A stretch of DNA of 64,000 nucleotides from Phycisphaerae bacterium (GCA_041687095.1 JAWLCQ010000005.1:17520-81519); one strand, 5' to 3'. Positions 27,015 through 51,254 are shown, numbered from the stretch's first letter. Numbers and translations: made by a program. Notes: generated from the sequence alone by a model not told the origin.

Positions 27015-27069
27015 ACGGTGGTCGGTCCCGGGGGCATGTCTCGTGGCCCCGCGAAGGAAGGGAGCAGCC

Positions 27070-27264
27070 ATGGCCACCTCGTCGCCGGATACGGTGATGA
27101 CCATCGGGGAGCTGTCGGAGTACCTAAAGGTCTCCCGGTCCACGCTCTACAAGCTCGCCCAGGAGGGCAGGCTGCCGGGACAGAAGGTCGGTCGCCACTG
27201 GCGGTTCCGCAAGGCTGCCGTGATCCGCTGGCTGGACCAGCAACCTCGCACGCGAAAGAAGTAG
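27070..27264 (+). CDS. Excisionase-family (HTH_17) DNA-binding protein
   Basis: MTIGELSEYLKVSRSTLYKLAQEGRLPGQKVGRHWRF. Confidence 0.9.
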   Translation: MATSSPDTVMTIGELSEYLKVSRSTLYKLAQEGRLPGQKVGRHWRFRKAAVIRWLDQQPRTRKK

Positions 27265-27271
27265 CTCGCTC

Positions 27272-32842: not shown

Positions 32843-32933
32843 CTAACCATATTCGATTACTGGTAGCGTCAACGCAGTTATGTGGCGGGAGTCCGCCATC
32901 TGCGCCCAGTCCTAATCTTATTGGGAGCGAGAG

Positions 32934-33431
32934 ATGAAGATCAATGATGAACACATGTACCACGGTGCGGCCCTGAATCAGATCGCGGAGGATCCACACT
33001 TCACAGCAATCAACGCGTTCCGAACGAATGGGGAGCTCTCCCGAGCCAGCTTCATCATCAACGACGACATCGGCATCTACCTCAAGTATGCCGGAAAGCC
33101 TCTCGGCCCATTCGACGAGTACAAGTTCACCTTCCATGCGGACCACCTTGCAGAGCTAGACCGTTTGGCCGGCAGGTGTGCCAGAGTGTTTCTCGGACTG
33201 GTCTGCGTTCAAGGGGACCATATCTGCTGCCTGCCATACGCTGACCTGCAGCACATGGTTGACCTGAGGCGGAAGAACGCTGGGGTGGACGAAGAGCAAT
33301 ACCAGATCCTGGTTGTTCTCCCAACGAGGAAGTCGTTCAGAGTCTACATCAACCCGCGTGGAGCAAAGGGCAGGAAGATGGGAGAGCGTGTCGTCAACCG
33401 GAACGAGTTCCCTTCGTGTCTATTTGTCTAG
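32934..33431 (+). CDS. Hypothetical protein between hsdS and hsdR
   Basis: Clean 165-aa ORF, YHGAAL..IYLKY. Confidence 0.75.
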   Translation: MKINDEHMYHGAALNQIAEDPHFTAINAFRTNGELSRASFIINDDIGIYLKYAGKPLGPFDEYKFTFHADHLAELDRLAGRCARVFLGLVCVQGDHICCLPYADLQHMVDLRRKNAGVDEEQYQILVVLPTRKSFRVYINPRGAKGRKMGERVVNRNEFPSCLFV

Positions 33432-33449
33432 CCCGGAATTGCGGACGGA

Positions 33450-36389
33450 ATGGCATCGACCGATACATCTGAGAAGTCCCTGGAACGCTTGGTGGCTGAA
33501 CGGCTGACTACTAGCGCCGGTTACGTGCAGGGCATCAGCGAGGACTACGACCGGGTCCACGCCGTTGACCTGGCGCAGCTTCAGGGCTTCGTGTGCGCCA
33601 CCCAGCCGGAGACGGCCGAGGCGCTCGGGCTGGGCGAGGACACGCCCAAGCGGATGCAGTTCCTCCACCGCCTCCAGGGCGAGATCGCCAAGCGGGGCGT
33701 GATCGACGTGCTTCGCGGCGGGGTGAGGCATGGCCCGGTGCACTTGAACCTGTTCTACGGCACGCCGACGCCAGGCAACGCTGCGGCGGCAGAGCGATTC
33801 GCGGCCAATGTCTTCAGCGTCACCCGGCAGCTTCGGTACAGCAAGGACGAGACGCAGCTCGCACTGGACCTGTGCCTGTTCATCAACGGATTGCCGGTGG
33901 CGACGTTCGAGCTCAAGAACCGCCTGACGAAGCAGACGGTCGAGGACGCTGTGCAGCAGTACCGACGGGACCGCGACCCGCGGGAGCTGCTGTTCCAGTT
34001 CCCCCGGTGCATGGTGCACTTCGCGGTGGACGATCAGGAGGTGCGGATGTGCACGCACCTCAAGGGCAGGGACTCCTGGTTCCTCCCGTTCAACAAGGGC
34101 TTCCAGGACGGGGCGGGCAACCCGCCCAACCCCGCGGGGCTCAAGACGGCCTACCTCTGGGAGGAGGTCCTCACCAAGCCCGGGCTCACGGACATCATCG
34201 AGAACTACGCCCAGGTCGTCGAGGAGCGGGACGACCGGGGCCGGAAGAAGCAGAAGCAGGTCTTCCCGCGATATCACCAGCTTCGGGTGGTGCGGAGGCT
34301 CTTGGCCGCTGCGCAGGCGGACGGGGTGGGCAAGCGGTACCTGGTCCAGCACTCGGCGGGCAGCGGCAAGAGCAACTCCATCGCTTGGCTGGCCCACCAG
34401 CTCATCGGGTTGGAGCGGGACGGAGCGGTGCTGTTCGACTCGGTGATCGTCGTCACGGACCGGCGGGTGCTGGATCGGCAGATCAAGGAGACGATCAAGC
34501 AGTTCGCCCAGGTGTCGGCGACGGTCGGGCACGCGGAGCGGAGCGGGGACTTGCGGCGGTTCCTGCGGGACGGCAAGCGGATCATCATCACGACGGTGCA
34601 GAAGTTCCCCTTCATCCTCGACGAGATCGGGGACGAGCACCGCGGGCGGAAGTTCGCCATCATCATCGACGAGGCCCACTCCAGCCAGGGCGGCCGGACG
34701 GCGGCGCAGATGAACATGGCGCTGTCGGAGGACGGGACCGGGGAGGAGGAGAGCTACGAGGACCAGATCAACCGCATCATGGAGGCGAGGCAGATGCTGG
34801 AGAACGCCAGCTACTTCGCCTTCACGGCCACGCCGAAGAACAAGACGCTGGAGATCTTCGGGCAGCCCGATCCCCAGGGGGACAAGGTCCGCCACCGGCC
34901 GTTCGACAGCTACACAATGAAGCAGGCCATCCAGGAGGGGTTCATCCTGGACGTACTGGCGAGCTACACGCCGGTGGAGAGCTACTACCGGCTGATGAAG
35001 ACGGTGGAGGCCGACCCGGAGTTCGACACGAGCAAGGCGCAGAAGAAGCTGCGGCGGTACGTGGAGTCGCACGACCACGCGATCCGGCGGAAGGCCGAGA
35101 TCATGGTGGACCACTTCCACGACCAGGTGATGGCGCGGCGGAAGATCGGGGGTCAGGCGAGGGCGATGGTCATCTGCAGCAGCATCCGCCGGGCGATCCA
35201 GTACTACCACGCCTTCTCGGCGTATCTGCGGGAGCGCAAGAGCCCCTACCAGGCAATCGTCGCCTTTTCGGGGGAGCACGAGGACGGGGGGCGGCAGGTG
35301 ACGGAGGCGACGCTCAACGGGTTCCCCAGCGGACAGATCGAGAAGAAGTTCCAGCAGGACCCGTACCGCTTCCTGATCGTCGCCGACAAGTTCCAGACCG
35401 GCTACGACGAACCGCTGCTGCACACGATGTACGTGGACAAGGTGCTCTCTGGCATCAAGGCGGTTCAGACGCTCTCGCGCCTCAACCGGGCCCACCCGCA
35501 GAAGACCGACACCTTCGTGCTGGACTTCATGAACGACGTGGACATGATCACGACGGCCTTCGCGGACTACTACCGCAGCACGGTCCTGAGCGAGGAGACG
35601 GACCCGAACAAGCTGCACGACCTGAAGGCGACGCTGGACGGGTACCAGGTGTACGCCTGGCCGCAGGTGGAGGAGCTGGCGAGGCTGTTCGTCGGGGGCG
35701 CGGTGCGGGACCGGCTCGACCCGATCCTGGACGCGTGCGTGGCGAACTACGTCACGGAGCTCGACGAGGACGGGCAGGTGACCTTCAAGGGCAAGGCGAA
35801 GGCGTTTACCCGGACGTACCAGTTCCTTGGGTCGATCCTTCCCTACACGGTCCGGGAGTGGGAGGAGTTGTCGATCTTCCTGAACTTCCTGGTCCCCAAG
35901 CTGCCGGCCCCGGTGGAGGAGGACCTGTCCAAAGGCATCCTCGAAGCGATCGACATGGAGAGCTACCGCAACGAGGTGCAGGAGACCATGCGGCTGGCTC
36001 TGCCGGACGAGGACGGGGAGGTCGGGCCCGTGCCCACCAGCGGCGGCGGCCGCAAGCCCGAGCCCGAACTGGACAGGCTCAGCAGCATCATCAAGTCGTT
36101 CAACGAGCAGTTCGGCAACATCGACTGGAGTGACGCCGACCGCATCCGGCGGGTCATCGCCGAGGAGATCCCCGCCCGCGTCGCCGCCAACCGCGCCTAC
36201 CAGAACGCCATGAGGAACAGCGACCGCGCCGCCGCCCGCCTGGAACACGACCGGGCCCTGGAGGACGTCGTCGTCAGCATGCTCTCGGACCACACCGAGC
36301 TCTTCCGGCAGTTCCAGGACCACCCGGGCTTCCGGCAGTGGCTCGCGGACACGATCTTCGGCGTGACGTACGATGGAAGTGCGGCATGA
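33450..36389 (+). CDS. hsdR: Type I R-M restriction subunit
   Basis: D..LFINGLP..ELKN, HSAGSGKS, DEAH, TATP, TGYDEP, QTLSRLNR. Confidence 0.96.
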   Translation: MASTDTSEKSLERLVAERLTTSAGYVQGISEDYDRVHAVDLAQLQGFVCATQPETAEALGLGEDTPKRMQFLHRLQGEIAKRGVIDVLRGGVRHGPVHLNLFYGTPTPGNAAAAERFAANVFSVTRQLRYSKDETQLALDLCLFINGLPVATFELKNRLTKQTVEDAVQQYRRDRDPRELLFQFPRCMVHFAVDDQEVRMCTHLKGRDSWFLPFNKGFQDGAGNPPNPAGLKTAYLWEEVLTKPGLTDIIENYAQVVEERDDRGRKKQKQVFPRYHQLRVVRRLLAAAQADGVGKRYLVQHSAGSGKSNSIAWLAHQLIGLERDGAVLFDSVIVVTDRRVLDRQIKETIKQFAQVSATVGHAERSGDLRRFLRDGKRIIITTVQKFPFILDEIGDEHRGRKFAIIIDEAHSSQGGRTAAQMNMALSEDGTGEEESYEDQINRIMEARQMLENASYFAFTATPKNKTLEIFGQPDPQGDKVRHRPFDSYTMKQAIQEGFILDVLASYTPVESYYRLMKTVEADPEFDTSKAQKKLRRYVESHDHAIRRKAEIMVDHFHDQVMARRKIGGQARAMVICSSIRRAIQYYHAFSAYLRERKSPYQAIVAFSGEHEDGGRQVTEATLNGFPSGQIEKKFQQDPYRFLIVADKFQTGYDEPLLHTMYVDKVLSGIKAVQTLSRLNRAHPQKTDTFVLDFMNDVDMITTAFADYYRSTVLSEETDPNKLHDLKATLDGYQVYAWPQVEELARLFVGGAVRDRLDPILDACVANYVTELDEDGQVTFKGKAKAFTRTYQFLGSILPYTVREWEELSIFLNFLVPKLPAPVEEDLSKGILEAIDMESYRNEVQETMRLALPDEDGEVGPVPTSGGGRKPEPELDRLSSIIKSFNEQFGNIDWSDADRIRRVIAEEIPARVAANRAYQNAMRNSDRAAARLEHDRALEDVVVSMLSDHTELFRQFQDHPGFRQWLADTIFGVTYDGSAA

Positions 36390-36405
36390 GACAGGAGACT
36401 TCCCT

Positions 36406-37308
36406 ATGATCGACCGACGGCCGCAAACGATCCAGTTCTTCCTGCCACAGGGCGAACCGCGGGGCCTTCGCATCGCCGAGATCACCACGCGGATCGTGCA
36501 AGCGGTCTACGTCCCACGGAACAAGCTGACGGAGGCTGGGGATCGCCCCGAGTTGCGGGGAGTCGGGGTCTACTTCCTCTTCGGCCAACCCGAGGAGGCC
36601 GCCAAGCCCATCTGCTACATCGGCGAGGCCGAGGACTGCCATACCCGCCTGAAGCAGCACAACGCAAGCAAGGACTTCTGGCAGCAGGCCATCGCCATCG
36701 TCTCCAAGACCGGGAGCTTCACCAAGGCCCATGTGCGGTATCTCGAATGGTACTGCATCGGCAAGGCGAAGGAGGTCAGCAGGTACACGCTGGAGAACGG
36801 CAACGGTAGCAGCGAGCCGTTTACGACCGAGCCCATGCGGGCCGACCTGATGGACGCATTCGACACGCTCAACGTCCTCACATCAGCGTTGGGCTATCCA
36901 GTGGTCGAGGCGAGGCTCCAGGCGCAGCGAGAGGAGATCTTCTACTGCACGCGAAGGCCGCGCGATGGGGTGGAGTGCGATGCGAAGGGCTATCCGACGG
37001 ACGACGGCTTCACGGTGATGGCCGGTTCGCGTGGCAGGAAGAAGATGGCCGACTACGCTGGCGAGTGGCTCATCTCGGGACGGCGAGAACTCATGGAGGC
37101 CGGGGTGATCCAGGAGGAGTCCGATGGCGAGCATATCCGCTTCGCGGAGGACTACACCTTCAAGACCCCAAGCGGCGCGGCCATGATGCTGATCGGCTCT
37201 CCGGCTAACGGCTGGACGGAATGGAAGGATCGGGACGGACGAACGTTAGATGAGCTGAAGCGGCAGGCATCGGGAGTTACCGAAGCCGACACCGGGAACT
37301 GCGAGTAG
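36406..37308 (+). CDS. GIY-YIG nuclease with DUF4357-like C-terminus
   Basis: GVYFL..CYIGE..RLKQH..KDFW; FKTPSGAA..NGWTEWK. Confidence 0.88.
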   Translation: MIDRRPQTIQFFLPQGEPRGLRIAEITTRIVQAVYVPRNKLTEAGDRPELRGVGVYFLFGQPEEAAKPICYIGEAEDCHTRLKQHNASKDFWQQAIAIVSKTGSFTKAHVRYLEWYCIGKAKEVSRYTLENGNGSSEPFTTEPMRADLMDAFDTLNVLTSALGYPVVEARLQAQREEIFYCTRRPRDGVECDAKGYPTDDGFTVMAGSRGRKKMADYAGEWLISGRRELMEAGVIQEESDGEHIRFAEDYTFKTPSGAAMMLIGSPANGWTEWKDRDGRTLDELKRQASGVTEADTGNCE

Positions 37309-37334
37309 GTGTTTACATCGCTGGGAGGCCTGGC

Positions 37335-38333
37335 ATGGGGCCAGAGATCAAGTCTTGGCAGATCGTTGGTGGCAAGCTCAAGGCGTCCAACTCGACATTG
37401 GCGGAAGCTGGCAGGACCGAGCCGTACGACCTTGAGCCTTGGATCGAGTCCAACCCCGAGATCGTCGGCGCGGACATCGCGGTCATCGGCCGGCAGATTC
37501 TGACGAAATCCGGGCCGATCGATCTGCTGGGCATCGACAGGAACGGCAACCTCGTCGTTATCGAACTCAAACGCAACAGGCTCCCCCGCGAATCGCTCGC
37601 TCAAGCCATCGACTACGCATCCGACGTTGCCTCCTGGAGCATCGAGCGGATCAGCGAAATCTGCTCCGAGAAGCGAGGCCAGAGCCTGGAGGAATACCTG
37701 AGCGAGACCTTCGAGGATGTCGATGTTGACAACCTCAACGTCAACGACACGCAGCGCATCATCCTTGTGGGGTTCTCCATCGACGCAGCCTTGGAGCGGA
37801 TGATCGAGTGGCTCTCCAACAACTTCAATGTGAGCATCAACGCCGTCGTCCTGCACTACACGAAGACCACCAGCGGCGACGAGTTACTTACCCGAACCTC
37901 CATCATCTCGGAAGAGCTGGAGCAGGAGCGGGTCAAGAAGCGGAAGAAGTTCACCATCCCCTCCTCTGATGAGCCTGGGGACTACGACGAGGCTGCCTTA
38001 CGGAAGAAGCTCACGGCGTACCTCTCCCGCAGACCGGTGACCAACCAGCGAATACTGAAGGTGTTCCTGCCGATTCTGCTAGCGAATGAAACCGTCACCC
38101 GGCCACAACTCAAGGCGGAATATCAGCGGCAAGTACCGGAGGAGGAGACGCCCAAGGTCGGCTACTACCTGTCCATGATCTCCGCCCAACTCGGCCGCGA
38201 AGGCAACGACTTTCTGCGACAGGTGATCGCGTACGAGTACCCCAACCATCCGTGGGAGAAGGACAACTTCTCTCTCCGCAAGCAGCACCGGAGTCTTGTG
38301 GAGGAAGTCATTCACGAGCTCACACCGCGTTAG
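37335..38333 (+). CDS. NucS/DUF91-like PD-(D/E)XK endonuclease domain protein
   Basis: LEPWI..IGRQ..IDLLGID..VVIELKR..QAIDY. Confidence 0.85.
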   Translation: MGPEIKSWQIVGGKLKASNSTLAEAGRTEPYDLEPWIESNPEIVGADIAVIGRQILTKSGPIDLLGIDRNGNLVVIELKRNRLPRESLAQAIDYASDVASWSIERISEICSEKRGQSLEEYLSETFEDVDVDNLNVNDTQRIILVGFSIDAALERMIEWLSNNFNVSINAVVLHYTKTTSGDELLTRTSIISEELEQERVKKRKKFTIPSSDEPGDYDEAALRKKLTAYLSRRPVTNQRILKVFLPILLANETVTRPQLKAEYQRQVPEEETPKVGYYLSMISAQLGREGNDFLRQVIAYEYPNHPWEKDNFSLRKQHRSLVEEVIHELTPR

Positions 38334-38472
38334 GCAAGAACGCCGGAACAGGCTGTTCCTCTCGTTTGGACTGATTCGCACGGTATCGGTTTGTGCTTTC
38401 GCCGAATCAACTTGCACCCTCTCGCCACTTGAGGCTCAGTGTCCACACGCGCCGCGTGAGCGGCCCCGGTGT

Positions 38473-38501
38473 TTGCCAGCGTGCAGCGAAACCCGTATGC
38501 T
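38473..38501 (+). promoter_or_regulatory. Sigma70-type promoter TTGCCA-N17-TATGCT
   Basis: Near-consensus boxes upstream of the histone-like gene. Confidence 0.6.
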
Positions 38502-38549
38502 GGCAGGACGAAGGACTCGATTCGAGCTTCCGAAGCAAAGGAGAAGTGT

Positions 38550-39017
38550 GTGATAAGAACGCGTACGATCACAGAGCTGCAGGCCGAGCTGGAACAGATG
38601 CAGCAGACCTTGGAGGCCCTGAAGGGCCAGCGGCAGAACCTGGCGGACGAACTGGCGAGGGTGGATGCCCGCATCGCCACGCTCGCCGGCGAGACCGGCC
38701 CCAAGGCCACTGCGGCCGCCCCGAAGGCCGCGAAGAAAGCGGGCCGCAAGGCCGCCCGCAAGGCCCCCAAGCGTGCCCGCAAGTCCCCTACCGCCAAGAC
38801 TGGCGGCAAGGCCCCCCGCGGCCTGCTCGTGGAGCACATCCGCGCCGCCTTGGCCCAGGCCCCGGAGGGCATGCGGGTGAAGGACATCGAGGCCGCGGTG
38901 CGAGAGGCAGGCTACCCGGTGCAGAGCAAGGACTTCTACACGCAGGTGGCGACGGCCGTGCCGAAGGTCCCCGGCGTCGAGCGCCTTGGCCGCGGGGTGT
39001 ACAAGCTCGCGGACTGA
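38550..39017 (+). CDS. Nucleoid-associated/histone-like protein (coiled coil, AKK-rich linker, winged helix)
   Basis: AAGGAG RBS; KAAKKAGRKAARKAPKRARK; GRGVYKL wing. Confidence 0.75.
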   Translation: MIRTRTITELQAELEQMQQTLEALKGQRQNLADELARVDARIATLAGETGPKATAAAPKAAKKAGRKAARKAPKRARKSPTAKTGGKAPRGLLVEHIRAALAQAPEGMRVKDIEAAVREAGYPVQSKDFYTQVATAVPKVPGVERLGRGVYKLAD

Positions 39018-39074: not shown

Positions 39075-39157
39075 TGTCTGTGGCGACCTCACCGCCCCCC
39101 TCGCCCCGCCGGCGTCCCGATGGGAGCCGACGCGGGGCGAGGGGGCCGCTCCGTCCG

Positions 39158-39541
39158 CTACTCCCAGTTCCGCAGATGGCTGAGGTAGATGATGCTCACG
39201 CCGCTACAGCCGAATGCATACTCCACCTCGCACCCGCGCAGTGTCTGCGCTCGGCTGAGACGGGCGTGGTCGCGGGTGACGAGGAACGAGAAGTCGTTCC
39301 TCTCCCGCTTGCGGGTCAGAAGCGCCCGCAGGTCCTCGCGCAGAACCGGCGTGACGCCCGAAACCCCCGCCAGCCGGACCTCGCCCGCGCAGATCATGCC
39401 CACGCTGTCGGCGAACCGGCGGATGTTGCGGATTTGCTCCTCCAGTTTCTCGTCGGCGCCTCCTGGGTACGCGCATCGGGCGTAGGCGATGTACCGCTTG
39501 CCCTCGCAAAGGATTCTTCCCGCCAAAAACGTCATGTCCAT
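39158..39541 (-). CDS. Stand-alone resolvase-like catalytic domain lacking the Ser nucleophile
   Basis: AYARCA (vs YxRxS), LEEQ, GVSG..R, DHARLSR. Confidence 0.65.
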   Translation of the reverse strand: MDMTFLAGRILCEGKRYIAYARCAYPGGADEKLEEQIRNIRRFADSVGMICAGEVRLAGVSGVTPVLREDLRALLTRKRERNDFSFLVTRDHARLSRAQTLRGCEVEYAFGCSGVSIIYLSHLRNWE

Positions 39542-39553
39542 ATGCCGTGCTCC

Positions 39554-40522
39554 TTACGGTGTTCGATCCCGACGTCGGGATCGGGGGGTTCGTTGTGCGG
39601 GTGGAACGCCGGCGGCGGCGAGGGCATCGGCCCACGAGCCGAACAGGCGCCGGGCGGCCCGGGCGAATCGATCGGGGTGGTGGGACGGGCGGAGGAACGG
39701 CTGGTTCGCCTTCGCCCGTCGCCGCAGGTGCTCGATGATCTCCTCGCGGGTGTAGGGAGGCCGATAGTGGCGGACGGTTGCCGAGTCGATCCCCGCGGCC
39801 TCGATCGCCCCGAACCAGCTTCCAAAACAGTTCCACGCGGCGTGGGCCAGGCGGGGCGCGTCGCGTGCGACGTCCGTCCAGCGCAGGGACTGGCCTTTGT
39901 GCTGGCGGATCAGGATCGCTTCCACCACCGACACCTGCGTCCATTGCGGCCACCGCCGGCCGTAGGGATCCGGGACGCCCGCCGCCCGCAGCGCCGCGCG
40001 CCACGAGCCGAACAGGCGATTGGCGGCGTTCTTGGCCCCGTGGGGCCGCACGTTGTAGGACTTGATCGGCAGGTTCAGGGCCGCCCGGGTACGGATGAGG
40101 TTCAGGAGCTCCTCCCGTGTAATGGGCCGGCGGTTGCGCCGGATGCGGTCGGGCTCGTAGCCCGCCGCCCGCAGTGCCTCGTCCCAGGATCCGAAGTGCT
40201 TCACGCCCGCCTGGGACAGTCCCCCGGGCAGTCGCAGGATCGATCCGAAGTGCAGCGGCGTCCCCTGGCGGTCGAGGCGGCGGATGGCCTCGATGACGGA
40301 CTCGGGCGTCCAGCTCCTGTAGGGGCAAACGGCGTCGGCGTCGATCCCCGCAGCCGCCAGCGCCTCGCGCCAGCCCTCGAAGTACCGGAAGGCCGCCGCG
40401 TACAGCGCCCCCTGCCAGCGGGAGACGCTGCTGGCGACGAGGGACTCGCCCTGACTCTTCAGATGCAGGATGTCGCGAATGATGTCGTCCTTGGACCAGT
40501 ACCGCTGCTTGCCCCTGGGCAT
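39554..40522 (-). CDS. FGSW-repeat protein C (5 repeats; homing-endonuclease-associated-repeat-like)
   Basis: WT.E.VIEAI...AA.R.FGSW..AL.AAG units. Confidence 0.85.
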   Translation of the reverse strand: MPRGKQRYWSKDDIIRDILHLKSQGESLVASSVSRWQGALYAAAFRYFEGWREALAAAGIDADAVCPYRSWTPESVIEAIRRLDRQGTPLHFGSILRLPGGLSQAGVKHFGSWDEALRAAGYEPDRIRRNRRPITREELLNLIRTRAALNLPIKSYNVRPHGAKNAANRLFGSWRAALRAAGVPDPYGRRWPQWTQVSVVEAILIRQHKGQSLRWTDVARDAPRLAHAAWNCFGSWFGAIEAAGIDSATVRHYRPPYTREEIIEHLRRRAKANQPFLRPSHHPDRFARAARRLFGSWADALAAAGVPPAQRTPRSRRRDRTP

Positions 40523-40524
40523 CC

Positions 40525-41874
40525 CTATCCTCCTTCCTCTCGCCGCCGCGACGGGCCGCGGCGTCCGCGGGATGGGCGGCCGGTCCCGAGACCGGCGGCT
40601 CGGAGGACGTTGGCCCAGGAGCCGAACAGGCGGCGTGCGGCCTGGGCGAGCCCGTCAGGATGCTGGGTGGGACGGTTGCGGGGCTGGCCCTCCCCGTCCC
40701 GCTGCTGCACGCGTTCGAGAATCTCCTCGCGGGTGTAGGGAGGGCGGCGGGGATGGGGGCGAACGGTCGCCGGATCGATCCCGGCGGCCCTTAGGGCACG
40801 GCCCCAACTGCCGAAGTAGTTCCTGACGGCGTTGCCCAGGCGCGACGCATCGCACAGGACGTCCGACCACACCAGGGACTGCCCGTTGTACTGGCGGATC
40901 AGGATCGCCTCGACCACCGAGACCTGCGTCCATTGCGTGCGCCGGCCCTCGTTCGCCGGGACGCCTGCGGCCCGGAGGGCGTCGGCCCAGGAACCGAACA
41001 GCCGCTTGGCGGCCCGGACGAGTCCGTCAGGATGCCGACCGGGACGGTTGAGGGGCTGTCCCGCCGCGTCCCGCTGCCGCAGGCCATCGAGGATCTCCTC
41101 GGGCGTATAGGGACGGCGCTGGCGCCGAACCGTCTCGGGATCGATCCCCGCCGCCGCCAGCGCCTCGTTCCAGCCCCTGAAGTACGCCCGGCCCGCACTG
41201 ATCAGCGGGACTGCCTGGCGGGCGACCTCCTCGTACGACAGGGGCTGGCCGCTGCGCTGGCGGGCCAGGATCGCCTCGACCACCGAGGCCTTCGTCCAGC
41301 TCCTCCGCCCGGCGTAGGGGTTGGGCACCCCCGCGGCCTCCAGCGCCGCCCGCCAGGAGCCGAAGATCCGCTTCGCCGCTCCCTTGGCCGAGTGGGGCCG
41401 GACGCTGTAGGACTTGATGGGCAGGCCCCGAGCCACGCGGGAGCGGATCAGGTCCAGGATCCCCTCCCGCGTCCAGCGCTGGCGGCTGCGCCGGACCCGC
41501 TGGGGATCGTATCCGGCGGCGGCGAGGGCTTCGTCCCACGAGCCGAAGTGCTTCGTGGCCGCGGCGTTCACCCCCCCGCCCTTGCGGTAGGCGGAGGCGT
41601 AATGCAGCGGCACCCCCTGCCGATCGAGCTGACGGATGGCCTCGATGACGCCATCGGGCGTCCACCGCTTGCGGCCGTAGATGGTATCCGCGTCGATGCC
41701 CGCGGCCGCCAGCGCCTTCCGCCAGGAGCCAAAGTGCCGCTGGGCGGCTCCATAGAGCCCCGCGTGGCAGACATCGACGTGGCCCCCACGCAGGGGCTGG
41801 CCCTGCGCTTCCAGTTGCAGGATGTGGCTCACCACGTCATCCCCGTACCGGTATCGGACTACGCCCTTGGGCAT
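40525..41874 (-). CDS. FGSW-repeat protein B (7 repeats)
   Basis: AGGAGG RBS before MPKGVV; seven repeat units. Confidence 0.85.
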   Translation of the reverse strand: MPKGVVRYRYGDDVVSHILQLEAQGQPLRGGHVDVCHAGLYGAAQRHFGSWRKALAAAGIDADTIYGRKRWTPDGVIEAIRQLDRQGVPLHYASAYRKGGGVNAAATKHFGSWDEALAAAGYDPQRVRRSRQRWTREGILDLIRSRVARGLPIKSYSVRPHSAKGAAKRIFGSWRAALEAAGVPNPYAGRRSWTKASVVEAILARQRSGQPLSYEEVARQAVPLISAGRAYFRGWNEALAAAGIDPETVRRQRRPYTPEEILDGLRQRDAAGQPLNRPGRHPDGLVRAAKRLFGSWADALRAAGVPANEGRRTQWTQVSVVEAILIRQYNGQSLVWSDVLCDASRLGNAVRNYFGSWGRALRAAGIDPATVRPHPRRPPYTREEILERVQQRDGEGQPRNRPTQHPDGLAQAARRLFGSWANVLRAAGLGTGRPSRGRRGPSRRREEGG

Positions 41875-42851
41875 CCGGGCCCTCCTGAGCTTTGATGCCG
41901 CGACCTGCCGTAGGGGCCGCGGGGGGGATAGTTGTCGGGGATGACGGCGGCGCCGAGGGCCTTTCGCCAGGAGCCGAACAGGCGGCTGGCGGCTTGGACG
42001 ATCCAGCCGGGGTGGCGGCCGGGCCGGGGGTTGAACTCCGGGTCCTTGCGGGCCTGCTCCAGATACGCGAGGATGTCCTCGGGCGTGTGGGGCCGCCGGT
42101 AACGACGAACGCTGTCGGGATCGATGCCCGCGGCCTCCAGTGCCGCATCCCAGGTGCCGAAGGCCCGCCGCGCCGCCCCGTGCAGCAGCGGACACTGTGC
42201 GTAGACCACGCCGGGCGACAGCGATCGCCCCTGCTGCCGGCGCCGCAGGATCGCCTCCACCACCGAGACCTTCGTCCACCGGGGGGACTCGGCGAAGGGG
42301 TTGGGCACCCCCGCCGCCCGCACCGCGGCTTTCCAGGAACCGAAGAGCCGCTGCGCTGCGGATTCCACCGATCGGCGCACGGCCACCGCCTCCTGGGGCG
42401 ACAGGTTCTGCTGGTGCTGGCGGCGGATGGCCTGGAGCACCTCCTCGGCCGTCCATCGAGGCTGCCGACAGCGCACGGTCCGGGGATCGATCCCCGCCGC
42501 CCGCAGGGCCGCCTCCCAGGAGCCCAGGTGCTTCAGGGCCGCGCAGCGAAGGCCCCCGTCCACCCTCCGCACCGATCCGCTGTTGAGCGGCACCCCCTGC
42601 CGTGCGAGCCGCTGGATCGCCGCCACGATCCGCTGGTCCGTCCACTGCCGCTGGCGGCAGACCTTCCCGTCGTCCAGCCCCGCCGCACACAGGGCCTTAC
42701 GCCAGGAGCCAAAGTGCCTCCGGGCCGCCAGATCGAGTCCCCCCTGCCGCTTCTGCACCTCGCGGGAGTGCAGGCTCTCGCCCGCCAGCTCCAGCTCCAG
42801 GATGCGTCGGATCACGTCCTCCTTGCGCGGGTACCGGGACGCGCGTGCCAT
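41859..42851 (-). CDS. FGSW-repeat protein A (5 repeats)
   Basis: AGGAGG RBS; five repeat units. Confidence 0.85.
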   Translation of the reverse strand: MARASRYPRKEDVIRRILELELAGESLHSREVQKRQGGLDLAARRHFGSWRKALCAAGLDDGKVCRQRQWTDQRIVAAIQRLARQGVPLNSGSVRRVDGGLRCAALKHLGSWEAALRAAGIDPRTVRCRQPRWTAEEVLQAIRRQHQQNLSPQEAVAVRRSVESAAQRLFGSWKAAVRAAGVPNPFAESPRWTKVSVVEAILRRRQQGRSLSPGVVYAQCPLLHGAARRAFGTWDAALEAAGIDPDSVRRYRRPHTPEDILAYLEQARKDPEFNPRPGRHPGWIVQAASRLFGSWRKALGAAVIPDNYPPRGPYGRSRHQSSGGPGCPRA

Positions 42852-42864
42852 GGGGGGCCTCCTT

Positions 42865-43491
42865 TCAGATGAGGGCGAAGAAGCTCTCCCGCCCCAGGTG
42901 CGGCAGGTACTTCATCGCCGCCGCCGTCAGCGTCATCACCTCCAGGCGAACCCAGTTGCTCTCGCCGCTGAAGCACACCCGCTCCACCGCGAACCGCCGC
43001 TGGCGCTTGTCCACCAGGACGAACCGCAGCAGCGGGTAGTACTGCATCCGGCGGACCTTCGCTTGGCGGCGGGCGCGGAACATCTCCACCAGCTCCGGGG
43101 AGTAGCGCTTCGCCAGCGCCCCGCTGAGCGCCTCGGCGAACCCCTCGGCGAACTCCGCATCGAGGCTCTCCTGGAAGCACTTGCGATCGTCTGCCGAGGC
43201 GTAGACCGTGGCGGCGGGCCCCTCGACGTCCAGGGCGTAGGCGAAGGGGCGAAGCTGCTCCATCGCCGCCCGCAGCATCCGCTCCTCCAGCTCCGCGATC
43301 CGCCGGGGGCGCGTCCGCCGCAGGCAGACGTTGCCGTGGACGTTCTCGCGGACCTCGTACCCCCCGGGCAGCTTCGTCGCCGCCCCCTTGAGACGGGTGT
43401 GCATCACCCAGTAGGTGCCGCCGTTGCGCCCCCGCACGCGGCAGGGGTAGTAGGTCACGCCGTATCGGTTGGTGTACGAGAAGGGCTCCAT
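42865..43491 (-). CDS. Hypothetical protein
   Basis: YTNRYGVTYY..LPGGYEVREN; operon packing. Confidence 0.75.
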   Translation of the reverse strand: MEPFSYTNRYGVTYYPCRVRGRNGGTYWVMHTRLKGAATKLPGGYEVRENVHGNVCLRRTRPRRIAELEERMLRAAMEQLRPFAYALDVEGPAATVYASADDRKCFQESLDAEFAEGFAEALSGALAKRYSPELVEMFRARRQAKVRRMQYYPLLRFVLVDKRQRRFAVERVCFSGESNWVRLEVMTLTAAAMKYLPHLGRESFFALI

Positions 43492-43558
43492 GCCTGCCTT
43501 CCTGCTCTGTGGCCTCGCCCGCTGGGCCTCCGCCGCCTCCGTTGCGCCGCAGGCGGAT

Positions 43559-44422
43559 TCACCCCGTCGCGCGGCTCTCGCTTTCGGCGAGGACCGAGTC
43601 GAAGAACGCCAGCTCCTCCGGGTGCCGCGCCGCCAGGTGCGCCCGCAACTGCGGGCGGGAGATGATCTGGCGGACGTGGATCGCCAGCTTCAGAAAGTCC
43701 CCCACGTACTGGCGGTACAGGGCGTTGTAGAAGTCGTAGTGCTTCTCCACCTCCGCCAGCTTCTTCGTCAGGTCCCGCTTGACGTTCTGGCCCTTGAGCC
43801 ACGGGTGGTTGTCCCGCCGCTTCTTGTTCCGAAGCGGAGGCGGCGTCGCCAGCACCTGCGCCTTGACGAACGCACCGCTCCAGTCGCCCGTCTCCTTCAT
43901 CAGCGCCAGGATCTCCAACTGCCGCTTGGGCAGCACGTGCGCCAGCTCCTTCGCCACCCCCAGCAGTAGCTTCCCCCCCTCCAACTCCCCCACCACCTCC
44001 GGGTCCAGTTCGCGGTACAGAGAGGTGTGCAGGCGGGTTGCGACCGACTGGAGCCCGAACGCCCGGGCGATCGTCTCCTCGTCAATGCTCTCCAGGGCCT
44101 TGCGGAGCATCCGCACCTCCTCGCGGGAGGACAGGTGGTTCACCTGCCGGTTGGGCGTGTACAGGTCCCGGCTGGGCAGCACCAGGCACGGCACCGTCTC
44201 GACGCCCAGTTCCAGCAGGGCCGTGTAGCGGATGTACCCGTCGAGGATGAAGTACTGGTCCTCCTCCTGGCAGACGCACAGCGGCTCGATGAGCCCGACG
44301 GCCCGGAGGTTCGCCAGCAGCTTGGTGTAGCTCTTCTTGCCCACCGTGCGCTTGCGCAGCGGGGTGAGCTTCACGATGGGGACGTCGGCCCCCTGGATGG
44401 TGGCGGACTGGGGTTGGGGCAT
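43559..44422 (-). CDS. ParB/Srx-like protein with RepB-like C-terminus
   Basis: VGLIEPL..ILDGYIR..NRQVNHLS. Confidence 0.85.
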   Translation of the reverse strand: MPQPQSATIQGADVPIVKLTPLRKRTVGKKSYTKLLANLRAVGLIEPLCVCQEEDQYFILDGYIRYTALLELGVETVPCLVLPSRDLYTPNRQVNHLSSREEVRMLRKALESIDEETIARAFGLQSVATRLHTSLYRELDPEVVGELEGGKLLLGVAKELAHVLPKRQLEILALMKETGDWSGAFVKAQVLATPPPLRNKKRRDNHPWLKGQNVKRDLTKKLAEVEKHYDFYNALYRQYVGDFLKLAIHVRQIISRPQLRAHLAARHPEELAFFDSVLAESESRATG

Positions 44423-44452
44423 GGGGTTCTCCTTGGAATGGGGGTGTCGGGG

Positions 44453-45334
44453 TCAGACGGTGTACTCGCCCTTGAGCGTGGGGTTCTCGGAGAGCCCCGC
44501 CTCGTTCAGCATCGCCACGAAGACCCCGTCGGCCCGCAACCGCTGCAGGGCCACGAGGATCCGCATCAGCCGGTTCTCCCGCTGGCCGGCCTGGTACACG
44601 AAGGCCTCCTTCTCGCGGGTGATCTTGCTGATGTCGCGTTTGAGCTTGTCCACGGTGTAGGGGACGGAGGGCTTCTTGGAGCTGAGTTCCTTGCCCTTCT
44701 CCAGGCGGTCCTCGATGATCTTCCGCACCCGCGGCAGGTTGTTGGCGTTGACGATCCCGTTGTCGAACGCGTCCATCAGCAGGTGCTGGATGGAGCGGTC
44801 GGTGGACTGGGCGACGCTGGCGGCGAAGGTGATCGGAAACACCCCCTCCTCCACCCCCTTGATCAGCCGCTCCTCCCCCTGCTCGATCAGCCGCACCACC
44901 GTCCGCAGGTGCTCCTGGCTCTTGCCGGTGATGGCCGCCAGCTGCTTCCAGTCCATCCCGTAGTCCCGCATCTCCTTCAGGGCCCGGGCGAACTCGATCG
45001 TCTGCGGGGGCGTGCGGGCGATATTCTCGCCCAGGGTCATCAGGTGCGCCTGGCGCTCGTCGATGTCCCACACGTCGGCGGCGATGTGCGTCTGGCCCAG
45101 CTCGATGTGCGCCAGCAGCCGCCCCTCCCCGCAGATCAGGTCATATAGCCCCGTCCCCGCCAGGTTCCGGGCGTTGACCAGGATGGGCTTGTACAGGCCC
45201 ACCTCCCCGATGCTCCGCACATTCTCCTGGAACTGCGCCTTCTCCCGCCGGCGGGAGTTGACCACGTTGATCTGGTTGACCGGCAGCATGCGGTACTCCC
45301 GCTGGGCCATGGTGCGAATCGCTACGTCCTCCAT
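44453..45334 (-). CDS. ParB-like protein
   Basis: VGLYKPILV..LICGEGRL..ENIAR. Confidence 0.88.
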   Translation of the reverse strand: MEDVAIRTMAQREYRMLPVNQINVVNSRRREKAQFQENVRSIGEVGLYKPILVNARNLAGTGLYDLICGEGRLLAHIELGQTHIAADVWDIDERQAHLMTLGENIARTPPQTIEFARALKEMRDYGMDWKQLAAITGKSQEHLRTVVRLIEQGEERLIKGVEEGVFPITFAASVAQSTDRSIQHLLMDAFDNGIVNANNLPRVRKIIEDRLEKGKELSSKKPSVPYTVDKLKRDISKITREKEAFVYQAGQRENRLMRILVALQRLRADGVFVAMLNEAGLSENPTLKGEYTV

Positions 45335-45346
45335 CGTTCGGTCCTT

Positions 45347-46849
45347 TCATTTCAGAAGGTCTCGGATCAGGTCCAGGCCGCTATAGCCATGCAGCTCGAT
45401 GCGGGCGTCGCTCGCCGCCGACAGGCGCACCCACGGCTGGGACACCATCAGCCGCGGCATCGCCAGGTACCCCAGGATCTCCCGCTCCCCCTCGTCCGAC
45501 AGCGCGACGCCCAGCGTGATGTCTACCACCTCCCGCCGGTCCGGCCGGAAGGACCAGAACGCCCCGTAGCCGTCGGGCACCGGCACCGAGGGCTGGATCA
45601 GGACGGTGAAGTTGCGGTTGATCACCAGGAAGTCCTCGTGCTCGTCCACCAGCTCCACCTCCTGGCGGATCGCATGGAACACGTCGTCGCGGGCCCGCTG
45701 GAGCACGTCGGCGAACATCGCCTGGAACGCCCCGCCCAGACCGCCGAACTTCCGCGCGTACGTTGCCGCCGAGGGGCAGTCGGGCTCGAAGCGAAGCAGC
45801 CCCGAGGTGACGACGTGGTACTTCTCGTACACCGCCCGCAGCCGCTGGGCCATGCACTCGCTGCTGAAGCGGCGCTTGCGCCCCTCGAAGATCGCCCGCG
45901 CCGCGTCGAACAGCTCCCGCGAAACCACCGGCTCGTACGCCCCGGGGGTGACGATCCACTGGTCGCGGGGGTTGACGCGCGTGGGCCCCTTCATCCGCTG
46001 CCTTGTGCGGTTGTAGACGACCGCACCGGCGTACTGCTCGTTGGCCAGGATGTGCCGGATGCCCCCCTCGCTCCAGCGCACGCCCGCCGGCGAGGGGACG
46101 CCGCGGGAGTTGAGGTGCCCGGCGACCTGGCGCTCGTCAAAGCCCTTCTCGACGAACAGCACGAAGATCTCCTGTACCACCGTCACCTGGGCCTCGTCGC
46201 CCGGCACCAGCACCACCCGCCCGTTCTGGATCGCCTTGCGCTGGCCGGGCTGGAGGATGCGGTCGGGCTGCTTCTGCTCGTTGAGCATCAGGCGATGGTA
46301 CGCGTACGGCGGCGGGCCCCCGGGGCGGTAGCCCTGCGTGGCGACCTTCGCGGCCCCCTCGAACACCTTCTTGCTCAGCGCGCGGCTGTACTCGGCGCTC
46401 TGGCAGCGCTCGAACGCCTTGCGGAACTGCGTGACGAACTGGTTCCCCTCCTCCGTAAACCCGATCGTAGTGTACACTACCTCCTTGCCGTTCTGCCGAC
46501 ACAGCGCCTCGAAGTGCGCCGAAAGGTCCGTGTCCTGGAACCGCCCCCAGCGGCTGATGTCCAGCACGAGGATCAGGACGAAGTCCTCGCGGGTGCGGGC
46601 CCACTCCATCATCTCGTTGAACGCCGGGCGGCCCTCGGCGTTGAGCCCGCTCTTGCCGCGGTCGGCGAACTCGTGGATGATCTCGATGTCGTGCTTCTCG
46701 GCGAAGGCCCGCACGTTGTCCTGCTGGATCTCGACGGAGTTCTCCTGCCCGATCTCCGCCGAGTGGCGGTAGTAGGCCACCGCCCGCAGGCGCGGCTTGG
46801 TCTCCACCGGCTCGGTTTTTCGTACCCACCATCCGTCCATTCGCGCCAT
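45347..46849 (-). CDS. Large serine recombinase
   Basis: AYYRHS, D.GKSG..RPAF, DISRWGR, SAEYSR.LS, GG.PPY, recombinase domain N..Y.G. Confidence 0.92.
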   Translation of the reverse strand: MARMDGWWVRKTEPVETKPRLRAVAYYRHSAEIGQENSVEIQQDNVRAFAEKHDIEIIHEFADRGKSGLNAEGRPAFNEMMEWARTREDFVLILVLDISRWGRFQDTDLSAHFEALCRQNGKEVVYTTIGFTEEGNQFVTQFRKAFERCQSAEYSRALSKKVFEGAAKVATQGYRPGGPPPYAYHRLMLNEQKQPDRILQPGQRKAIQNGRVVLVPGDEAQVTVVQEIFVLFVEKGFDERQVAGHLNSRGVPSPAGVRWSEGGIRHILANEQYAGAVVYNRTRQRMKGPTRVNPRDQWIVTPGAYEPVVSRELFDAARAIFEGRKRRFSSECMAQRLRAVYEKYHVVTSGLLRFEPDCPSAATYARKFGGLGGAFQAMFADVLQRARDDVFHAIRQEVELVDEHEDFLVINRNFTVLIQPSVPVPDGYGAFWSFRPDRREVVDITLGVALSDEGEREILGYLAMPRLMVSQPWVRLSAASDARIELHGYSGLDLIRDLLK

Positions 46850-47248
46850 CCTCCGCTCGCCGCGGTCCTGGCATCCCGCCGCGGGGCGAACGCCGCGGCG
46901 GAACGCAGTAAGTAATGCATTTACAGTTGTTTACATCAACGCCCCACCTCGGGGCCGCGACAGGATACCTCCACGGGCGGGGGGTGCAAGGGAATTCCGG
47001 GGGCGGAAGCGATGTAAGTGGTTGGGGGAGCATGCATTACTGCATGCACATCCCGCTTCGACTGGCATTGCTCTACGCTCAAGCGACCACAACTGCGTGC
47101 AAAACCTGTGTTGCGGGGTGGCCCGGGGTACTGGATAATGAGGTTTCTCCCGGCGCGTGTTGCGGTCTTTGCAGGGCGAGCAGCGATTCGGCTTCCAATA
47201 CAGCCAAGGGCGGGACAGGCGACGTCTCCGATGGGAAAGGAGCATCTG

Positions 47249-49911: not shown

Positions 49912-50090
49912 GGCGTGGCCAAGCGATGGAGGAAGGTCTCTTTCCCACGGGGCAGGTCGCCGCTGCCGGGTGATTATTCCCGTGCTGGGAGGAACGGTGA
50001 CCGCCACGCCATCACATGGGCCATCGGTCTTCGTCGCTATGCTTATCCGGGAAGGCACTGCGATCACACGAGCACGAAAGGGGCACCACC

Positions 50091-51092
50091 ATGGGGCGCG
50101 GGGGTCCGGTACGGCGGCAGTGGGAACTGATCCGGGTGCTCCACAGCCACCGCTTCGGCGTGGCGACGGAGGAGCTGGCGAAGGAACTGGGGGTGGGCGT
50201 GCGGACGGTGCTGCGGGATCTGGCGGTCCTGCGGGACCTCGTGCCGCTCCGCCACGACACGCGGGCGCGGGGCAAGCGGTACTGGATGCTGGATGACGAG
50301 GCGCTGGGCACCTGCGCGCTGCAGCCGACGCTGACGGAGATGCTGAGCCTGTGCCTCTGCCAGCAGTTCCTCCGGCCCCTGGGGGGCACGGAGTTCGGGG
50401 ACGGGCTGTCGGCCCTGGTCGAGAGGGTGCGGACGGTAGTGCCGGCGGGGACGCTGGCGCACTTCGAGAGCCTGCAGGAGTCCTTCCACGTCAAGAACGT
50501 CGCCGGGCACGACTACTCCGGCCAGAGCGAGCACATCCGTTCGCTCAACGAGGCGATCCGCGACCAGCGGGTCGTGCGGATCGCCTACTGGTCGGCAAGC
50601 GAGGGCCGCCAGATCGACAGCGAGTTCCACCCCTACGGGATGCTCTTCCTGGGCACCTCGCCCTACTGCGTGGGCCACATGGCGTGCTGCGACGCGCTGC
50701 GGACGCTGAAGCTGGCCCGGCTGCGGGACCTTGCGGTCCTGGAGACGACCTTCGACAAGCCCCCCCACTTCTCCCTGCCGGCTCAGTTCGAGGGAACATT
50801 CGGGGTCTTCCACGCCCAGGCCCCACAGCGCATCCGCGTCGAGTTCACCGGCTGGGCGGCGACGAACGTGCGGGAGATGCAATGGCACCCGTCCCAGCGG
50901 ATCACGCGGGGGACGGGGGACACCGTGGAGGCCACGTTCGATCTGGGCAGCACGGTGGAGTTCAAGCGGTGGCTGCTGGGCTTCGGCCCCTGCGCCCGCG
51001 TGCTGGCGCCGGATTCGCTCGCACGGGAGATTCAGGGCGATCTCGCGCTGTCGATGGAGGGGTACGGACACGCTCGCTCGCCTGCGGCGTAA
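50091..51092 (+). CDS. WYL-domain transcriptional regulator (wHTH-WYL-WCX)
   Basis: ELAKELGVGVRTVLRDL; FHPY..YCVG..LRTLKLAR; WHPSQ; WLLGFG. Confidence 0.93.
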   Translation: MGRGGPVRRQWELIRVLHSHRFGVATEELAKELGVGVRTVLRDLAVLRDLVPLRHDTRARGKRYWMLDDEALGTCALQPTLTEMLSLCLCQQFLRPLGGTEFGDGLSALVERVRTVVPAGTLAHFESLQESFHVKNVAGHDYSGQSEHIRSLNEAIRDQRVVRIAYWSASEGRQIDSEFHPYGMLFLGTSPYCVGHMACCDALRTLKLARLRDLAVLETTFDKPPHFSLPAQFEGTFGVFHAQAPQRIRVEFTGWAATNVREMQWHPSQRITRGTGDTVEATFDLGSTVEFKRWLLGFGPCARVLAPDSLAREIQGDLALSMEGYGHARSPAA

Positions 51093-51183
51093 GCGCTACT
51101 GGGCACGTGGCGCGCGCCGTGGCGCAGGATTCGTGCGCGACGCAAGAATTTCTGCGAAAAACCCCTCCCTTCCGGCCAGGTCC

Positions 51184-51214
51184 GTCCATTCCTGACAGGG
51201 TCGTTCCTTATGCT
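51184..51214 (+). promoter_or_regulatory. WYL/PafBC-like box: GTCC-N5-TGACAG-N10-TATGCT
   Basis: Near-palindrome plus -10 upstream of the ATPase. Confidence 0.45.
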
Positions 51215-51254
51215 GATTTCAAGATCGAACTGACTCAGCATAAAGGGTATACCC

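Follow-up and report, generated by a model that had tools for sequence, protein, structure and literature searches.

A planctomycete prophage cassette combining a large serine recombinase and two ParB proteins with PF18780 repeat arrays and a Ser-less resolvase domain

Introduction

Large serine recombinases (LSRs) are used as genome-engineering tools, and the phage large serine integrases, such as those of phiC31, Bxb1, TP901-1 and SPbeta (SprA/SprB), work with recombination directionality factors. To our knowledge, the choice of site and direction by an LSR is understood only for enzymes of the zinc-ribbon/coiled-coil type. Recombination is also paired with partition in stability modules, as in the Cre-lox and ParAB systems of P1 and the par resolvase of RK2. 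Here we describe an eight-gene cassette in a 64,000-nt stretch of DNA from a Phycisphaerae bacterium (GCA_041687095.1, JAWLCQ010000005.1:17520-81519; hereafter the window), in which an LSR gene is followed by genes for two ParB proteins, a protein of no assigned family, three proteins built of PF18780 repeats, and a resolvase domain that lacks the catalytic serine.

The closest described genes are carried by the plasmids pAtC58 and pXAUT01, where they are annotated as a 'recombinase' and two 'RepB C-terminal domain' or ParB proteins with overlapping stops and starts. The literature searched, with subscription journals and supplements outside its scope, yielded no functional study of this proteobacterial trio and no description of the cassette layout, as the initial annotation of the window had supposed. 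We conclude that the locus is very probably an expanded form of a widespread, unstudied module of one LSR and two ParB proteins, located at the end of a planctomycete prophage.

Results

Organization of the cassette

Eight co-oriented genes are present on the minus strand between positions 39158 and 46849, the coordinates first assigned to the unit. In 5' to 3' order these are:

45347-46849, minus strand: LSR, large serine recombinase of 500 aa with the catalytic Ser30 present
44453-45334, minus strand: ParB1, 293 aa, with ParB_N, helix-turn-helix (HTH) and RepB-C-like parts
43559-44422, minus strand: ParB2, 287 aa, a second, divergent ParB_N/RepB-C protein
42865-43491, minus strand: hyp208, 208 aa, no family assigned
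41859-42851, minus strand: repA, 330 aa, five PF18780 units of types 1-2-3-4-5, isoelectric point (pI) 11.3
40525-41874, minus strand: repB, 449 aa, seven PF18780 units of types 1-2-3-4-5-4-5, pI 11.2
39554-40522, minus strand: repC, 322 aa, five PF18780 units of types 1-2-3-4-5, pI 11.2
39158-39541, minus strand: res127, 127 aa, stand-alone Ser-less homologue of the resolvase catalytic domain

The genes are separated, in that order, by 12, 30, 67, 13, -16, 2 and 12 nt, and a Shine-Dalgarno-like GGAG/AGGA string precedes every one of the eight starts. The ATG of repB, at 41874, lies within a longer open reading frame (ORF) of 721 aa. The cassette is present once in the 5.46-Mb assembly, and repA, repB and repC are the only PF18780 genes in it.

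Linkage of the repeat genes to a widespread trio

A survey of one genome per species, searched with the repeat-protein alignment alone and only afterwards by tblastn with the other window proteins, yielded 26 loci, nearly all from metagenome-assembled genomes of Planctomycetota. At 18 of these loci, the repeat gene is immediately preceded, in the same orientation, by recombinase and/or ParB genes: 17 have LSR, ParB1 and ParB2 as far as the contig reaches, and one (L017) has an LSR fragment alone. Two of the eight loci without upstream trio genes have nearly no upstream DNA, and the remainder are mostly distant matches from other phyla. In IMG/VR, trio genes stand upstream, up to the contig end, at six of 22 viral loci, a count that includes the near-duplicates L042/L043 and L045/L046. 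The linkage is kept from 74% down to 45% LSR identity, while the identity of the repeat proteins drops in parallel from 52% to ~31-35%. The linkage between repeat genes and trio is not due to chance, in support of the initial interpretation.

The converse survey covered an even sample of 401 Planctomycetota genomes, ten of which, including the genome of the window, encode ParB2 homologues at E<=1e-20. LSR, ParB1 and ParB2 occur in a row in eight of the nine other genomes, and in the ninth the contig (L074) ends inside ParB1. Repeat genes follow the trio in a single one of the nine, G237, which is probably the genome of locus L013; the other eight genomes, like pAtC58 and pXAUT01, have the trio without repeat genes. 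A search with ParB1 retrieved 34%-identical proteins on proteobacterial plasmids. Since the trio mostly occurs without repeat genes, the repeat subfamily depends on the trio and not the reverse, and the arrays are a clade-specific (Planctomycetota) addition to a widespread trio. Three conclusions go beyond the initial annotation, namely that the trio is widespread as a module of its own, that the Ser-less domain is conserved as a partner, and that the cassette is situated in a prophage.

The trio forms the constant core of the cassette. The repeat part varies between one and three genes with arrays of 4-10 units (4+5, 5, 4, 7+5+4, 6+6+4 and 10+2 units per gene were seen). A winged-helix gene lies upstream of the LSR gene in L014, L015, L018-L020, L028, L045, L078 and L079, and a conserved, weakly P-loop-like protein of ~306 aa is encoded after a four-unit repeat gene in nine loci. 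Searched against 50,697 phage records, the LSR gave one match, an unannotated record of 7.5 kb.

Several individual loci deserve mention. In L074 (3766-5932), a DUF2924 gene and the gene of a canonical, zinc-ribbon-bearing LSR come after the trio. L075 (7808-8161) and L076 (7546-7944) have an extra ORF of 117 and 132 aa, respectively, without a family, between ParB1 and ParB2; both trios are repeat-less. A tyrosine integrase gene directly follows the cassette in L013 (10001-12370), with repeat-array genes adjoining, and in L041 (3430-6101), a phage locus next to endolysin and without trio, a repeat-array gene stands beside a tyrosine integrase gene. A Phycisphaerae genome of 49% GC contains a decayed cassette (L023, 8870-10348), in which the N-terminal part of the LSR directly borders the C-terminal part of ParB1, and the N-terminal part of ParB2 the last two repeat units; this cassette adjoins remnants of the tape-measure and portal genes of the same phage.

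The recombinase, the ParB proteins and hyp208

By alignment and synteny, the window trio consists of three co-oriented adjacent genes with an LSR carrying the motifs YYRHS and SRWGRFQD. The LSR scored 63.5 bits for PF00239 and 75.6 bits for PF07508, belongs to PHROG 95 (integrase) and has a near-neutral pI of 7.7. Its residues Y26, R28 and S30 are found without exception in the 17 family members compared, among them the LSRs of pAtC58 and pXAUT01. No zinc-ribbon domain (PF13408) was detected in it at E<=0.1; the canonical LSR that neighbours the trio in L074 scores 61.6 bits, which indicates that the PF13408 model works. In the place that follows the recombinase domain, the LSR appears to hold one unit of the kind that forms the arrays, an assignment that we regard as suggestive:

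45716-45880, minus strand: suggested PF18780-like unit, LSR residues ~324-378, right after the recombinase domain

A repeat unit aligned with LSR residues 325-378 as a side match in BLAST, and the LSR family consensus at this place, R-Y-x-P-x-x-M-L ... P-S-P-S-T-Y-A-x-H-F-G-S-L-D-x-A-Y, is close to the repeat-unit consensus R-W-T-x-E ... A-A-x-R-x-F-G-S-W-x-x-A-L. With hhalign, the LSR segment matched an alignment of 138 units with a score of 21.8 (P 3e-4) over 53 columns in register. When 29 sliding windows of the LSR were compared, the two with the whole segment scored 21.4-21.8, the three with the FG motif only 18.5-19.9, and scores of the remaining 24 were 6.5-14.1, none with a P better than 0.018. 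In P0283, a family member that consists of two LSRs in tandem, PF18780 matched below its cut-off (21.5 bits, E 2.9e-4) at the equivalent place after the second recombinase domain. A further protein, P0077, joins an LSR recombinase domain (43% identical to window residues 215-359) to ~9 units, and in its DNA (L082, L083) the frame is continuous across the junction between LSR and repeats.

ParB1 matched ParB_N with 31.5 bits (cut-off 26.3), and ParB2 matched RepB with 30.3 bits (cut-off 30) and ParB_N with 24.8 bits, below the cut-off. The two share only 23% identity, over 64 aa, and in relatives ParB2 always follows ParB1. No ParA/Soj ATPase was found among the genes at 36-51 kb of the window or beside the trio in pAtC58 and pXAUT01. 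The hyp208 protein matched nothing in Pfam, NCBIfam, PADLOC or PHROG; its family is widespread, with 648 cluster representatives at E<=1e-3, and occupies the cassette position only in the three closest loci, L011-L013. Among its relatives P0197, P0231, P0248 and P0201, three have an N-terminal DUF6933 fusion and one a shikimate-kinase-like P-loop fusion.

The repeat-array proteins

PF18780 (HNH_repeat) scored 80.2, 124 and 83.3 bits in repA, repB and repC, against a cut-off of 26; other Pfam families above cut-off were short partial matches at most, and no nuclease domain was detected in the three proteins with Pfam (E<=0.1), NCBIfam or PADLOC. These searches agree with the initial annotation, which had counted five, seven and five repeats and had seen no catalytic domain. 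Its order of unit types, 1-2-3-4-5 in repA and repC and 1-2-3-4-5-4-5 in repB, is likewise supported by the pairwise identity matrix and by type-specific hidden Markov models (HMMs). Its repeat length of ~65 aa has to be corrected to a period of 61-62 aa, and its FGSW core motif holds for 13 of the 17 units, the other four having LGSW, FGTW, FRGW or FEGW. All three proteins are very basic (pI 11.2-11.3, net charge +26 to +35).

Units of the same type are 45-67% identical and units of different types mostly 20-40%. Altogether 28 proteins of ~310-330 aa, including repA and repC, can be aligned end to end at ~50% identity with 26 invariant columns, and all of them have the same five unit types; their C-terminal tails are variable. 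As the five types are each conserved at ~50% in 28 relatives, these proteins form a fixed five-domain family and not a hypervariable array. The types 1-2-3-4-5 are recognisable in the window's own clade only and could not be assigned in distant cassettes with the type-specific HMMs. A zinc-finger- or TALE-like code is therefore not supported by the sequences, and the earlier picture of a zinc-finger-array-like system, with a constant scaffold and variable positions, gives way to one of five conserved types whose units are 20-40% identical.

A search with repB returned 587 homologues among 8000 candidates scored, most with PF18780 as the sole confident domain; all five rows that carried organism names were Planctomycetota. 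Matches in the ESM Atlas were confined to clusters named 'hypothetical protein' and 'recombinase', and among the 50,697 phage records repC had no match by tblastn. ROS/MucR or Cro-like domains occur fused to other PF18780 arrays.

AlphaFold modelled repC as a string of confident four-helix modules (predicted local distance difference test, pLDDT, 89; predicted template modelling score, pTM, 0.46), the mutual arrangement of which is not confident; a single unit gave pLDDT 89.5 and pTM 0.73. With an exhaustive structure aligner, the best match of one unit had Z 4.3 and a root-mean-square deviation of 4.5 Å over 56 residues. Among the 50 structural matches listed, 17 are named TetR/AcrR regulators and align over their N-terminal HTH domain, and KorB, ArgR and FapR are also included. 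Given the high pI, this weak HTH-like match and the fusions to, or location near, DNA enzymes, it is plausible that the arrays bind DNA, with the units as HTH-like four-helix modules, and we put this forward as their candidate role. A profile search of PDB sequences gave only a lysozyme match (E 0.041), which was rejected as chance.

The ratio of non-synonymous to synonymous substitution rates (dN/dS) of the repeat genes was 0.26-0.33 relative to their homologues in L011 and L012, and that of the LSR gene 0.26; relative to L011, values of 0.19-0.34 were obtained for the LSR, ParB and hyp208 genes. Paralogous units within the window gave 0.34-0.98, noisy values from ~60 codons each.

The Ser-less resolvase domain

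The protein res127 matched PF00239 with 26.5 bits, over profile positions 2-78 only, and has YARCA in place of the catalytic motif YYRHS of the LSR, in agreement with the Ser-less assignment made at the outset. It has a family of 12 proteins of 117-166 aa, 46-57% identical to res127, in which the nucleophile position is Ala or Val in 12 of 12; all 12 also lack the Asp of the DRLxR-type motif. Homologues of res127 directly follow the repeat gene in L039 and directly precede the LSR gene in L045, where the homologue stands within an LSR-ParB-ParB-repeat cassette. In genome G149, which has the trio without repeat genes, a shorter Ser-less piece, with YYRCD, forms the end of an ORF that precedes the LSR gene. 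A profile of the res127 family matches the catalytic domains of all trio LSRs with 20-37 bits. The protein res127 represents a conserved small family and not debris.

Prophage setting and neighbouring genes

The prophage comprises positions 1-26 kb of the window and the preceding 17.5 kb of the contig (L080, 1-17600). Its genes encode a tyrosine integrase, PD-(D/E)XK exonuclease, AAA_24, RusA, helicase, Dam and a primase-polymerase and, following these, a methylase, amidoligase, terminase gpA, lambda-type portal, capsid, cement proteins and tape-measure protein. The features from the tail genes to the cassette are:

21375-23663: tape-measure protein, in the prophage tail region
26986-38333: cargo block, between tail genes and cassette
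38469-39017, plus strand: protein of 182 aa that combines a coiled coil and a histone-H1-like stretch rich in Lys, Ala and Pro with a small domain at the C-terminus
39080-39161, unstranded: imperfect inverted repeat, possible terminator, located where the res127 and 38469-39017 genes converge

In the window, L012, L023, L039 and L042-L047, the tape-measure gene and the tail genes behind it run towards the 3' end of the cassette, from which they are separated by a spacer of ~0.3 kb to 14 kb. The recurrence of this arrangement in the window and nine further loci marks the cassette as a stable terminal module of the phage family, with the adjoining gap as a cargo slot. For three IMG/VR records, the classification is provirus with the boundary inside the cassette, and PF00589 (tyrosine integrase) was found in none of five cassette-bearing viral records, which at 34-69% completeness are too partial for this absence to carry weight.

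In the window, the cargo block encodes an HTH_17 protein, a type I restriction-modification (R-M) system, an unknown protein of 165 aa, hsdR, PDC-S14 (DUF4357) and PDC-S11 (NucS-like); a PD-(D/E)XK gene lies between hsdM and the hsdS-like gene of the R-M system. The gene at 38469-39017, which has no confident family, converges on res127. The arms of the intervening inverted repeat are 30 nt long and 77% complementary, and a terminator scan made no call there. For the left flanking gene, the best homologues reach 61-65% identity.

Beyond the LSR gene follow two unknown genes, WYL and a Ppl-like ATPase. More precisely, positions 50016-55473 contain genes for a WYL regulator, for an ATPase of 623 aa with AAA_23/AAA_21 that PADLOC finds Ppl-like, and for a protein resembling response regulators. 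The ATPase and the response-regulator-like gene are also neighbours of the cassette in L011 (793-4812, 11660-12664) and L013 (12952-16558), there with a HATPase_c gene beside them; WYL is present in the window and L011 only. This set may be a defence-like module that travels with the cassette. Two copies of a 31-nt direct repeat (55372-55402 and 60839-60869), 5.5 kb apart and 90% identical, bracket ThiF-like and IrrE/M78 peptidase genes and may mark the ends of a small island. Within a 537-aa tail-region gene, four tandem 117-nt copies (16289-16756) are 63-76% identical to the first.

Upstream region of the LSR gene

Two elements precede the LSR gene:

46966-46993, minus strand: conserved block upstream of the LSR gene, promoter-like by eye (TCCCTTGCA ... 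GAGGTA)
46908-46926, minus strand: AT-rich near-palindrome, a candidate operator or binding site, lying after the conserved block and before the LSR start

The block is invariant in the window, L011 and L012, where the surrounding DNA cannot be aligned; a simple sigma-70 consensus scan made no call at it. Similar AT-rich palindromes occupy the same place in L011 and L012. The AT-rich element is present in a single copy in the window, and none of 100 shuffles gave a match.

Discussion

Proposed working of the cassette

We tentatively propose that the ParB proteins and repeat arrays are DNA-binding accessory subunits of the recombinase and that the dead domain is a subunit mimic. We would call this reading possible but not yet probable; it is nevertheless deemed the most likely mechanism because of the one-sided dependence of the arrays on the trio, the operon coupling, the missing zinc-ribbon and the accessory domain types, both of which the enzyme itself apparently shares. 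According to this proposal, the LSR, with its intact Ser and no zinc-ribbon or coiled-coil, would be the only catalyst. The two ParB proteins and the very basic arrays would assemble with it on its site or sites, where such accessory subunits could set site choice, synapsis or direction, the job of the zinc-ribbon domain and directionality factors in classical phage integrases. The arrays would be free-standing multiples of the repeat-like unit apparently present in the LSR, and as they multiply the enzyme's own unit type, they could sit on the same DNA as that unit, or on the same protein surface. The Ser-less domain may pair with the LSR catalytic domain and so damp or gate strand exchange. 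A more far-reaching version, a multi-subunit machine in which free-standing paralogues of the enzyme's own parts (the dead catalytic domain and arrays of its repeat-type unit), together with the two ParB proteins, program the site and direction of the LSR, seems to us rather unlikely; if true, it would offer a natural and modular means of redirecting or gating an LSR, and the number and order of repeat units would evolve by duplication, as in the duplication of units 4-5 in repB.

A number of results weigh against the accessory-subunit proposal. The hhalign probability of the match between the LSR segment and the units is 40%, the PF18780 match of P0283 is below the cut-off of 26, and our own HMM of 138 units gave no significant match to the LSRs. 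The 5' part of the LSR gene on the P0077 contig has an in-frame stop and a frameshift; P0077 was accordingly downgraded as a Rosetta-stone fusion and may be a decay product, like L023. Foldseek returned nothing from the PDB at E<=0.001 for the whole repC model or one unit, and the structure aligner found no chain at Z>=5, so that the fold match is weak. Relative to L011, dS is 1.4-1.6 for the repeat genes and 0.6-0.7 for the backbone genes; this more than twofold difference suggests that the repeat genes are not simple orthologues or are exchanged or sorted separately from the backbone. Because the trio mostly works without repeat proteins, these cannot be required for the core reaction. The tyrosine integrase gene at the far end of the phage genes on the window contig means that the LSR need not be the integrase. 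Finally, the AT-rich element has no second copy in the genome at up to four substitutions, and no convincing attachment (att) sites or flanking direct or inverted repeats were found around the cassette or the prophage.

Alternative explanations

The repeat proteins might instead be chromatin or silencing proteins, nucleoid-associated DNA coaters of low specificity that share the operon for co-expression only and act throughout the phage or host genome, for instance to keep prophage or cargo silent. We consider this unlikely, though it deserves serious attention. It would account for their extreme basicity, the lack of a catalytic domain and the multivalent small DNA-binding-like modules, as well as for the lack of a fixed inter-unit arrangement in the models (pTM 0.46 vs 0.73 for the single unit), the free variation in copy and unit numbers and the fact that the trio functions without arrays in most genomes. 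Related arrays are moreover found away from the trio in phages, beside terminase in L040 and beside endolysin and tyrosine integrase in L041, and the histone-H1-like/coiled-coil gene at 38469-39017 adjoins the cassette. Such generic coaters are, however, difficult to reconcile with a tight, long-lived linkage (18 of 26 and six of 22 loci, in every case with the repeat gene immediately behind the trio genes and in the same orientation), with unit types kept in 28 five-unit relatives, which suggests specific and not generic contacts, or with an LSR that seems to contain the same kind of unit. This apparent unit in the LSR also makes unit-unit contacts conceivable, and with them the explanation that the arrays are protein-protein adaptors and not DNA binders, which bind the LSR unit or C-terminal domain, or the ParB proteins, and bridge or sequester the recombinase. 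The dead catalytic domain in the operon points in the same direction, namely regulation by subunit mimicry. A pI of ~11 and Arg-rich linkers are nevertheless better suited to nucleic acid than to an LSR of pI 7.7, and the C-terminal tails vary, with no conserved docking tail seen; we therefore judge the adaptor role to be improbable.

The genomic neighbourhood could be read as that of an anti-phage or exclusion system, with the ParB proteins and arrays sensing foreign DNA and the recombinase damaging or rearranging it. The window cassette lies amid defence genes (type I R-M, PDC-S14, PDC-S11, WYL and the Ppl-like ATPase), at other loci the trio is found beside CBASS, AbiE, GmrSD, HipA and PIN toxin-antitoxin genes, and on pAtC58 beside AbiEii and Fic. 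Defence islands, however, gather near mobile-element recombinases anyway, and PADLOC-DB 2.0 has no match for seven of the eight cassette proteins and a single weak one for ParB2 (MTase_II, E 0.002). In the window and nine further phage-type loci alike, the cassette stands where the tail module ends, and this constant position fits a phage backbone module; PHROGs also groups the LSR with integrases. A defence function is left with little probability. That the repeat proteins are decaying remnants of homing endonucleases without their nuclease domain is suggested by PF18780 itself, which by family name and description was defined on repeats of HNH homing endonucleases. This explanation is close to refuted: no nuclease domain is encoded in or beside the repeat proteins, their 28 full-length five-unit relatives have 26 invariant columns, and most of the 587 homologues have PF18780 as their only confident domain. 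The dN/dS of 0.26-0.33, and the intact frames and Shine-Dalgarno-like strings of all three genes, are likewise at odds with decay.

Comparison with known systems

PMC8078820, the single paper found to name PF18780, tabulates it among repeat families that lack a known structure. The window units, of ~54-61 aa and predicted to be helical, match this family with 80-124 bits against a cut-off of 26; the arrays differ from it in being stand-alone, without HNH or other nuclease, and tied to a recombinase-ParB operon. The likeness to TALE and C2H2 zinc-finger arrays is one of working only, in the tandem small modules, basic protein and variable module number. The window units are of fixed types, with different types 20-40% identical, and do not form a near-identical scaffold with a few hypervariable positions.

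With the stability modules of P1 and RK2, the cassette shares a recombinase beside ParB-type proteins on mobile DNA. It differs from them in having no ParA ATPase in or beside the operon and two different ParB proteins instead of one. The phage serine integrases are closer: they share with the window LSR the resolvase catalytic and recombinase domains, a phage-borne location and membership of PHROG 95, and in both cases accessory proteins controlling the reaction are to be expected. In contrast to these integrases, no zinc-ribbon or coiled-coil was found in the window LSR, the C-terminus of which appears to consist of a repeat-like helical unit and an unknown beta-rich domain. We know of no counterpart, among known directionality factors, of an accessory set made up of two ParB proteins, repeat arrays and a dead catalytic domain.

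The closest relatives are the proteobacterial trios ATU_RS24145/24140/24135 on pAtC58 of Agrobacterium fabrum C58 and Xaut_4807-4809 on pXAUT01 of Xanthobacter, which have the same three genes, tightly coupled and in the same order. Their LSRs align with the window LSR from end to end at 33% identity and share its invariant YxRxS, SRWGRFQ and C-terminal motifs, and ATU_RS24140 is 34% identical to ParB1. Unlike the prophage-borne cassette of the window, they are carried by plasmids and have no PF18780 genes, hyp208 or Ser-less domain. Read cautiously, the comparison describes a widespread three-gene module of plasmids, islands and phages that is still without a known function. It delimits an LSR family without zinc-ribbon that is always accompanied by two ParB-like proteins, and to which one branch adds arrays and a dead catalytic domain. 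If these additions are true subunits, the PF18780 repeats, a large family, would gain a concrete partner and an assay, and the cassette would represent a new way of controlling serine recombination, possibly with a separable targeting part.

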